Shown here: piece by piece, positions 51,096 through 53,025 of the stretch
Numbering within the stretch: the first letter of the stretch is position 1
Layout of the letters: each line of letters begins with the position of its first letter
DNA from: Escherichia coli
Lineage (GTDB): Bacteria; Pseudomonadota; Gammaproteobacteria; Enterobacterales; Enterobacteriaceae
Assembly (NCBI RefSeq): GCF_041886205.1
Contig: NZ_CP169029.1
DNA length: 64,000 nucleotides
Direction: 5' to 3' (one strand)
The notes under the pieces: model-generated
Seen by the model: only the letters and a program-made list of their open reading frames with translations
The model's database searches: none
What the model was told of the DNA's origin: nothing
Translations under genes and position numbers: made by a program

Positions 51096-51362
51096 TCAGG
51101 CTGAGAGCACAGAAGGAAAGTGCCTGGCTATTATATCGTTAATTCTGTCAATCAGCTCCAGCCTTTTGAAAGTGATGTGTGCAGATCCACCCTTCTTAAA
51201 GTATTTAATGATGAACATCTCATCTTCATAGCGTCCTTTACCCTGAACGGACTGTATGTGGTCATCCAGATTAATGGTGATATTCCCTCGGTTGTCGGGG
51301 ATCGGTTTACCGCTGAGCAGATGCAACATTCTTTCCAGGTCAGCCAGGCGATCTGCCTGCAT
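51096..51362 (-). pseudogene. Putative 3' fragment of a gene split by the IS110-family insertion
   Basis: Same strand as fragment 52735-53025 on the other side of the IS. Not verified as one reading frame. Confidence 0.3.
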
Positions 51363-51399
51363 TCCACTGATAAGATGAAATCTATGGTCACCCCCGTTT

Positions 51400-52734
51400 T
51401 TGCAACACTGATTTTTGATTAATGGTTGGCTTGCTTAAATCTATCCGGCGTCTCTGTGGGCAAGGATGCCCGCGCCCCGATGAGTTCCGCACCTGATAAT
51501 CCTAAAAATCCCCTCGGCTTCAGTGAGCCATTTCATCTGTTAGGTTTTTAATCAGGTCGATTTGCCGTTCATGTCATCAATAATCAGTCTTCGCAAAACC
51601 AGAAAGGTAACTTGTATCTTATTGTTTAAAATAAACTAATTGAGTTATATCAGCATCTATATCAGGCCTGATATTCTTTTTTCTGAGTAGTGATTGCCCA
51701 GGCAATTCGAGCCAGTTTATTTGCCAGAGCGCAGGTAACCACATTCGAATGCTTCTTGTTGAGTTGCTCCCGAACCCACTCAGCAAGTTTTCCATGCTTG
51801 CGTTCAAGTCGCATTATGAATGAGCGGGCACACTGAACCAGTAACCGGCGTAAATTTTTATCACCTCGCTTACTGATACCCAACAGAGTCGATTTTCCTC
51901 CAGTGCTATACTGCCGGGGAACAAGTCCTGTGGAAGCTGCAAAATCCCTGCTGCATGAGAACTGTTTCCCGTCACCAAGTTGCGACGATAGTAAGCTGGC
52001 AGTAATCGGACCAACACCAGGAATTGTCATAATGCGCTGAGCGGTATCATCAGCGTTGATTGACTGACTTAATTCTGATTCCAGCTCTGCTATTTGCTCA
52101 ACAAGGTAAAAGTAGTGGGTATGCAACCTCACCAAAAGGCGGCTCAGATATTCGGGGATTTCGTGTTCAGCCAACACGAGAGACAACCGTTTTATTACAG
52201 CATCACCTATCGGCAGGCTGATTCCAAATTCCAGCAAGAAACCGTGGATCTGGTTGGTTGTTTTCACTTTATCTCTGATGAGCGATTCTCTGACCCGGTG
52301 TAACGCCCTCATGGCCTGCTGGGTCTCAGTTCTTGGCTGGACAAAACGCATTGATGGTCGTGAAGCCGCTTCGCATATGGCTTCTGCATCAACAAAATCA
52401 TTCTTATTACTTTTGACAAACGGGCGAACGAACTGTGGAGAAATCAGCTTAGTTTCATGCCCAAAATCAGAGATACAGCGAGCCATAAAGTGTGCACCCG
52501 CACAGGCTTCCATTACAACAACTGAGGGCGGACATGTCGCCAGAAACTGCATCAGTTTAGTACGGGTAAATTTTTTACGCAGAAGAGCCTTACCAGACTT
52601 GTCTTGACAATGAATGTGGAAGGAGTGCTTTCCGAGATCGATACCAATAAGTGTGATGTTCTGCATGATGGTCTCTCCGTTAAAGGGATTTACCTTAACA
52701 GCGTACTGCTGTTAAGGTGGGGGTGACCATATCA
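51400..52734 (-). mobile_element. IS110-family insertion sequence (boundaries approximate)
   Basis: A single DEDD-type transposase gene with about 68 bp of non-coding flank on its 5' side and about 300 bp on its 3' side, lying between two same-strand gene fragments. Confidence 0.6.
51662..52666 (-). CDS. IS110-family (DEDD) transposase/recombinase
   Basis: 334 aa, MQNITLIGIDLGKHSFHIHCQDKSGKALL… N-terminal RuvC-like fold typical of IS110/IS1111 transposases; C-terminal …IPGVGPITASLL… motif. Confidence 0.85.
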   Translation of the reverse strand: MQNITLIGIDLGKHSFHIHCQDKSGKALLRKKFTRTKLMQFLATCPPSVVVMEACAGAHFMARCISDFGHETKLISPQFVRPFVKSNKNDFVDAEAICEAASRPSMRFVQPRTETQQAMRALHRVRESLIRDKVKTTNQIHGFLLEFGISLPIGDAVIKRLSLVLAEHEIPEYLSRLLVRLHTHYFYLVEQIAELESELSQSINADDTAQRIMTIPGVGPITASLLSSQLGDGKQFSCSRDFAASTGLVPRQYSTGGKSTLLGISKRGDKNLRRLLVQCARSFIMRLERKHGKLAEWVREQLNKKHSNVVTCALANKLARIAWAITTQKKEYQA

Positions 52735-53025
52735 TTATCCCCACTGGTCCCATCTCACCAGATTGTTGACGATAATTTTACTGCCAAATTTACAGGGTGA
52801 GTTGGTTTTGTAATCCCAGCTCAGCCCTTTGAAGACGTTGATCACTCCCCGTTCAAACACTTCATCTTTGTTCTGGTGCAGTTGTTCAAATGTGCTCAGA
52901 ATGTTCGCTTCGCTGATTTCCGGAAAATTATCATATTCCAGTGACCTGGACCTGACTGAGGTGGAGCAGATAACGTCCGTATTCTCGTTGACCACTTCCG
53001 GACGGGAGACTGTGATTTCAGACAT
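52735..53025 (-). pseudogene. Putative 5' fragment of the IS-disrupted gene
   Basis: 96-aa ORF ending immediately next to the IS transposase start. Confidence 0.3.

Follow-up and report, generated by a model that had tools for sequence, protein, structure and literature searches.

Interruption of a DUF4942 gene by ISSfl8 at the end of a tRNA-Phe island in Escherichia coli: element boundaries and a candidate guide RNA

Introduction

Two short open reading frames (ORFs) on the same strand flank an insertion sequence (IS) in a 64,000-nucleotide stretch of Escherichia coli contig NZ_CP169029.1 (assembly GCF_041886205.1), hereafter the window. The locus raises two questions: are the ORFs the halves of one gene, and what placed the IS between them? 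An earlier reading of the bare sequence (the sequence-only reading) supposed that the fragments, if contiguous before the insertion, would encode an island protein of roughly 200 residues and unknown function, recently inactivated by the IS. Our analysis makes it highly probable that a 190-residue DUF4942 gene, the last gene of an island at the tRNA-Phe gene pheV, was cut in codon 97 by an intact ISSfl8 element through RNA-guided insertion. The situation as such is already known: RefSeq genomes annotate two DUF4942 pseudogene pieces flanking the ISSfl8 transposase, the mechanism of the family was characterised in 2024, and no new principle is involved. Added here are the exact boundaries of the element, a probable pairing between an ISSfl8 guide and its target, and two qualifications: the insertion is 'recent' in the sense of undecayed, not of being private to this genome, and the target allele was possibly already impaired.

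One gene in two pieces

The two fragments and the inserted element, all on the minus strand, are laid out as follows.

52738..53025, minus strand: 5' fragment of the DUF4942 gene, codons 1-96 (from the ORF list, Pfam and the empty-site alignment)
51096..51379, minus strand: 3' fragment of the DUF4942 gene, comprising the final 2 nt of codon 97, codons 98-190 and the stop
51380..52736, minus strand: ISSfl8 (IS1111 group, IS110 family), 1,357 bp, in the same direction as the gene it splits

Both ORFs noticed at the outset are present, at 52735-53025 (minus strand, 96 residues) and 51096-51362 (minus strand, 88 residues), with ISSfl8 between them. The downstream ORF begins at an internal methionine, Met103 (51362), and its homologous frame reaches past this listed start up to 51379. 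The two fragments fall on consecutive parts of a single Pfam domain, DUF4942 (PF13708, 190 positions; gathering cut-off 25 bits). The upstream fragment covers profile positions 32-98 (E = 1.9e-23, 83.6 bits), and the downstream frame, extended to the IS, covers positions 104-189 (E = 1.3e-25, 90.6 bits); they do not match two different proteins.

A search with the joined flanks matched thousands of DUF4942 genes, the best being uninterrupted genes of 573 bp. The flanks are 573/573 identical to the intact gene of E. coli 2015C-3163 (WP_001290246.1), and the sole difference in the alignment is an 8-nt gap, the eight bases being IS-derived, which brings the true length of the insert to 1,357 bp. 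Excising it (51380-52736) gives back an in-frame 573-bp ORF of 190 residues, identical to intact alleles elsewhere and close to the length first supposed. No full-length relative was found with extra sequence between Gly96 and Phe97. This comparison confirms, at the level of sequence, that the two ORF fragments are halves of one DUF4942 gene.

Excision and translation across the junction, the check proposed with the sequence-only reading, thus yields an open frame when the correct boundaries are used. Joining the flanks at the inverted repeats removes 1,349 bp and leaves 8 nt, with a frameshift and TAA and TGA codons between the halves, because the IS ends run 5 nt and 3 nt beyond the repeats. 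To recover the host frame, excision of an IS1111-type element has to follow its true ends, which extend beyond the subterminal repeats. The break point lies inside codon 97 (T|TT). A premature TAA at 52735-52737, composed of the final target T and the first two IS bases, follows directly after Gly96, so that the protein is truncated there and the other 93 codons are cut off from their start. The annotation is thereby settled: the two small ORFs are no orphan genes but the fragments of a single DUF4942 pseudogene, accompanied by one intact ISSfl8.

The inserted element

The inserted element was identified as ISSfl8, which belongs to the IS1111 group within the IS110 family. Its parts are:

52719..52736, minus strand: left end, with a 5-nt extension AATGA (52732-52736) and a 13-bp subterminal repeat TATGGTCACCCCC (52719-52731)
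51662..52666, minus strand: transposase, 334 residues, intact, with DEDD_Tnp_IS110 and Transposase_20 domains
51380..51405, minus strand: right end, with a -35-like TTGCAA (51400-51405), the repeat GGGGGTGACCATA (51383-51395) and a 3-nt extension GAT (51380-51382)

Many E. coli genomes contain elements annotated 'IS110-like element ISSfl8', and the segment from repeat to repeat agrees with these at 99.9-100% identity. ISSfl8 is the ISfinder designation, which NCBI PGAP also uses. The transposase falls within the range of 330-350 residues set for IS1111-group DEDD (RuvC-like) transposases. It matches PF01548 in its N-terminal part (E = 2.4e-20) and PF02371 in its C-terminal part (E = 6.3e-23), and scores 351 bits against the NCBIfam model NF033542, 'IS110 family RNA-guided transposase' (cut-off 140). 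The 13-bp inverted repeats (51383-51395 and 52719-52731) are perfect and have the form expected of the IS1111 group, namely subterminal, 7-17 bp long and followed by short terminal extensions. The non-coding ends are unequal, with 70 nt upstream of the transposase at the left and 282 nt downstream of it at the right.

Relatives with differing left flanks divide the 8 extra nucleotides between the two ends, AATGA belonging to the left and GAT to the right. The boundaries are ambiguous by 1-3 nt, as T or GAT is present at both junctions. The empty-site alignment reveals no target duplication and neither gain nor loss of bases beyond this ambiguity. Neither a second ISSfl8 copy nor the uninterrupted 13-mer target was found elsewhere in the window.

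If the ends were joined in a circle, the junction would be expected to read ...CCATAGAT|AATGATATGG... and would present TTGCAA-17 nt-GAT|AAT, which is promoter-like as a match to consensus. A consensus scan detected no promoter in the integrated left end and no outward hybrid promoter at the right end. In the supplement of Durrant et al. (PMC11208160), ISSfl8 appears in the IS1111 group with a bridge RNA predicted in its right end. The identity matrix of Siddiquee et al. (PMC11187229) places its transposase at about 70-78% identity to those of IS1328, ISPlu13 and IS4321/IS5075.

A candidate guide RNA and its target

The long 3' non-coding region of ISSfl8 contains the following candidate elements.

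51396..51599, minus strand: structured 3' non-coding region, candidate seekRNA or bridge RNA, with a 24-nt long-range closing stem (51576-51599 / 51396-51419)
51492..51556, minus strand: candidate target-binding stem-loop, from the fold and the target matches
51530-51538, minus strand: putative T-guide AGAUGAAAU, exact complement of the target top strand ATTTCATCT
51516-51529, minus strand: hairpin GGCUC...GCC between the guides
51505-51513, minus strand: putative B-guide GGGGAUUU(U), identical to the target top strand GGGGATTT and so complementary to the bottom strand
51434..51488, minus strand: second stem-loop, hardly varying among all the relatives, a candidate loop for binding the donor (IS end)

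The target of ISSfl8 is GGGGAT^TTCATCT (GGGGATTTCATCT in its uninterrupted form), which spans the codon stretch W-G-F-H-L of DUF4942. The 3' region, with its two internal stem-loops, is predicted to be more stable than 200/200 shuffles (z = -3.4). A 9-nt antisense match (T) and an 8-nt sense match (B) lie on either side of the hairpin and overlap by ATTT across the insertion point; the T match precedes the B match, which is the order reported for IS1111 seekRNAs. Joint matches of 8 nt sense and 9 nt antisense arise in 0.4% of 20,000 shuffles of the region, counted anywhere in a 46-nt target window. The second stem-loop holds AUAGAU, equal to the right-end terminus, and CUCAU, the complement of the left-end ATGAG in relatives; we infer that it would act as the donor-binding loop.

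We propose that a seekRNA or bridge RNA from this region would pair with both strands of GGGGAT^TTCATCT, and that the pairing would set circularised ISSfl8 at that exact position and in one orientation. The insertion was probably RNA-guided and site-specific, not random.

Relatives with other guides

Relatives of ISSfl8 (loci L003, L004 and L007-L027) were collected from E. coli genomes and metagenome contigs. When the contigs were scanned with a scaffold pattern from the non-coding region, 21 loci were recovered from metagenome contigs and none from genome contigs. Across the relatives the scaffold is almost invariant and the ends are invariant; only the guide bases differ, and the elements lie in correspondingly different targets. 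Three classes can be recognised:

Class A (ISSfl8): T-guide AGAUGAAAU; B-guide GGGGAUU; site GGGGAT^TTCATCT; host gene DUF4942
Class B: T-guide AGAAAAAAU; B-guide GGGUCUUU (GGGUCUU); site GGGTCT^TTTTTATGAT (GGGTCT^TTTTTAT); host gene IS3-family transposase
Class C: T-guide AGAGAAAAU; B-guide GGGCCUUU (GGGCCU(U)); site GGGCCT^TTCCCTG; host gene plasmid methyltransferase

The B-guide covaries perfectly with the left flank across classes A-C. We lean slightly towards reading ISSfl8 and the elements closest to it as a natural retargeting series, in which an almost invariant scaffold and invariant ends carry three guide pairs. Each pair would be aimed at a different gene of mobile DNA, namely DUF4942 in tRNA-Phe islands, a transposase gene of the IS3 family, or a methyltransferase gene of the plasmid leading region. 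If true, the series would document target switching in IS1111 elements through exchange of a few guide bases, and would show that such elements favour 'safe harbour' sites within other mobile DNA. The guide/target table of ISSfl8 and its two sister lineages could help in mining natural seekRNA or bridge-RNA specificities.

A few loci depart from this scheme. In L010 and L026 the guides come from more than one class or the ends are degenerate, and the non-coding region is truncated in L013 and L025. Hybrid non-coding regions are apparently also present among the relatives (e.g., L026).

Several observations weigh against the RNA-guided explanation or limit it. The putative donor-loop matches are short (5-6 nt), and the isolated 131-nt segment with the two loops is barely better than its shuffles (z = -1.7). 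An Rfam scan of the 3' region, permissive E-values included, returned no family, and the assignment as a seekRNA or bridge RNA is predicted from sequence. Clean covariation is seen on the B-guide side only: the class B T-guide matches its uninterrupted target imperfectly (7/9), and that of class C pairs at about 5/9 positions ungapped and well only if a 1-nt bulge is allowed. Finally, the surveyed copies are phylogenetically non-independent.

The DUF4942 family and the state of the target allele

The restored protein is 99% identical to NCBI clusters named 'DUF4942 domain-containing protein'. Sequence and profile searches of NCBIfam and the PDB were empty, the PADLOC anti-phage defence models gave 0 families at E <= 0.1 against the 190-residue protein, and the literature on DUF4942 amounts to passing mentions. 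Some sources label the family 'restriction methylase' or SAM-dependent methyltransferase. We rejected the label as unsupported, the function searches being empty and neither a methyltransferase domain nor a Rossmann-like methyltransferase fold being found in the DUF4942 protein.

It is a serious possibility, if somewhat short of an even chance, that the gene was dead before the IS arrived, the 190-residue form being a remnant of a 280-residue gene and the IS having settled without functional consequence in a neutral, safe site. The restored allele corresponds to residues 1-25 and 118-280 of the common 280-residue form, from which it derives by an in-frame deletion of about 92 residues (~26-117). 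DUF4942 homologues typically have 255-295 residues, with homology from residue ~15 onward, and the deleted part consists of confidently modelled helices. An intact long allele also exists at the same locus in strain CX12. On the other hand, the frame of the short allele is still open, and the allele is widespread, its clusters counting 1,361 and 1,455 sequences, and ISSfl8 interrupts the long form too, so that full-length alleles are disrupted elsewhere. That the IS caused a loss of function is uncertain, because its target allele already lacked these ~92 conserved residues of the 280-residue family. The claim of inactivation therefore holds in that the protein is cut at Gly96, with the reservation that the 190-residue allele may already have been impaired.

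The CX12 allele (L028:2353-3195) encodes 280 residues and carries no IS. At the corresponding site it has GGGGGCTTCATCT, which departs from the ISSfl8 target by two bases and encodes WGLHL in place of WGFHL; it is possibly a target-site polymorphism that escapes insertion, and the empty site counts in favour of guide-directed targeting.

One insertion or many

A further explanation is that ISSfl8 landed once by chance in DUF4942, that the other occurrences descend with the island, and that the guide-like matches are coincidental. The interrupted allele is indeed not private to this genome: among 5,426 complete E. coli genomes, ISSfl8 flanked at both ends by DUF4942-like sequence is present in about 80. 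Several IS-bearing genomes are 99.8-100% identical to the window across the segment, and the island module is itself mobile and multi-copy, all of which a single event passed on by descent would accommodate. However, the flanks of class A copies fall into at least five DUF4942 haplotypes, the position never varies, and the IS always runs in the same direction as the gene. In strain ZYB39, which is 100% identical to the window over 1,949 bp, an identical IS lies in both the short, 190-residue allele and the long, 280-residue paralog. In a spread sample of E. coli matches to the right-end junction, 21/21 copies of at least 98% identity run on into DUF4942, whereas relatives at 92-96% identity stop matching 5 nt past the end. 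The guide bases covary with the flanks in two sister lineages, the joint guide match is rare among shuffles (the 0.4% given above), and the IS1111 family is site-specific in experiments (Siddiquee et al. 2024, PMC11187229). A single random landing is accordingly very improbable.

RNA-guided insertion has a consequence for how such copies are read. Identical junctions cannot separate inheritance from recurrence, because the insertion is site-specific, and where insertion is RNA-guided, strains that share an IS-gene junction have not necessarily inherited it from one ancestor. For the age of the event, the word 'recent' survives in one sense, as the fragments are undecayed (0/573 changes), and fails in the other, as the same form is shared by those ~80 genomes.

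The notion that no single gene was split, and that small unrelated genes or fortuitous ORFs happen to lie beside the IS, could draw on the frameshift and in-frame stops of the inverted-repeat join; with the 5-nt and 3-nt extensions counted, the 573/573 identity to an intact annotated gene and the consecutive match of both halves to one Pfam domain have already refuted it, and we give it practically no credence.

Island setting

The sequence-only reading placed the locus in an accessory island, which the flanking sequence bears out. The split gene is the last of an island module comprising Ag43, DUF932, an antirestriction protein, RadC, DUF987, YeeU/CbtA, DUF5983, DUF957 and DUF4942, and it lies 110 bp inside the end of the tRNA-Phe (pheV) island:

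50964..50985, minus strand: 22-nt copy of the tRNA-Phe 3' end with one G missing, the distal end of the pheV island (imperfect direct repeat)

This copy is located 110 bp downstream of the DUF4942 stop. Strain MB53 has no island and carries an intact tRNA-Phe at exactly the same place; the intact pheV of the present genome must be situated outside the window, past its right edge.

Within the module, after a YeeU-family antitoxin (54240-54614, minus strand) and a CbtA-family toxin (within 53816-54337, minus strand) come overlapping genes for DUF5983 (53331-53819) and DUF957 (53122-53364), an arrangement usual for CP4-type modules. A terminator-like, GC-rich hairpin with a T-run occupies 53056-53082 (minus strand), between the DUF957 stop and the DUF4942 start. 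This hairpin suggests that DUF4942 may be transcribed apart from the upstream CbtA, DUF5983 and DUF957 genes.

Outside the island are glcB, glcA and a complete Wadjet system, jetABCD. The Wadjet locus (43920-50605, plus strand) encodes JetA (DUF3375), JetB (DUF4194), JetC (an SMC-like ATPase of 1,095 residues) and JetD (DUF3322 and JetD_C). It lies in the interval from glcA to the pheV attachment site, which in many E. coli is occupied by the yghD/gsp type II secretion genes. Matches to 80% or more of this stretch are present in only 8 of the 5,426 complete E. coli genomes.

Comparison with known systems

The same arrangement of IS and gene is described in the literature for orf56-59 of the Shigella SRL pathogenicity island and for pathogenicity islands of E. 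coli ST58. The window copy shows no substantive difference from the ISSfl8 of the Shigella flexneri SRL pathogenicity island and of E. coli islands. The surroundings do differ: the island in the window adjoins a Wadjet locus in place of yghD/gsp, which neighbours the island in ZYB39.

Among experimentally studied elements, ISSfl8 shares a DEDD transposase and the absence of target duplication with ISEc11, ISKpn4 and ISPa11, as described in PMC11187229, and with IS621, as described in PMC11208160. Both sources characterise the IS1111 group by inverted repeats that are subterminal, by non-coding ends of unequal length (short at the 5' side, long at the 3' side) and by insertion without target duplication. 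With ISEc11, ISKpn4 and ISPa11 in particular, ISSfl8 has in common the subterminal repeats, the long 3' non-coding region and a T match located 5' of the B match. As in the reported seekRNA elements, two short putative guides correspond to the top and bottom target strands and overlap in the target. The circle junction of ISEc11 has been shown to contain a promoter (PMC11187229), and that of ISSfl8 would bring together a promoter-like site. Unlike these three elements, ISSfl8 has its target, GGGGAT^TTCATCT, inside a protein-coding island gene, and its RNA is a computational prediction. IS621, of the IS110 group, differs further from ISSfl8 in that its RNA is described at the 5' end and with the reverse guide order (PMC11208160).

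Further parallels are IS4321/IS5075, with transposases about 70% identical to that of ISSfl8, and the attC-targeting IS1111 members (Partridge & Hall 2003; Post & Hall 2009, as cited in PMC11208160). Like ISSfl8, these are described as site- and orientation-specific, with targets carried by other mobile elements. They hit transposon terminal repeats or integron attC sites, whereas ISSfl8 hits the W-G-F-H-L codons of an island gene.
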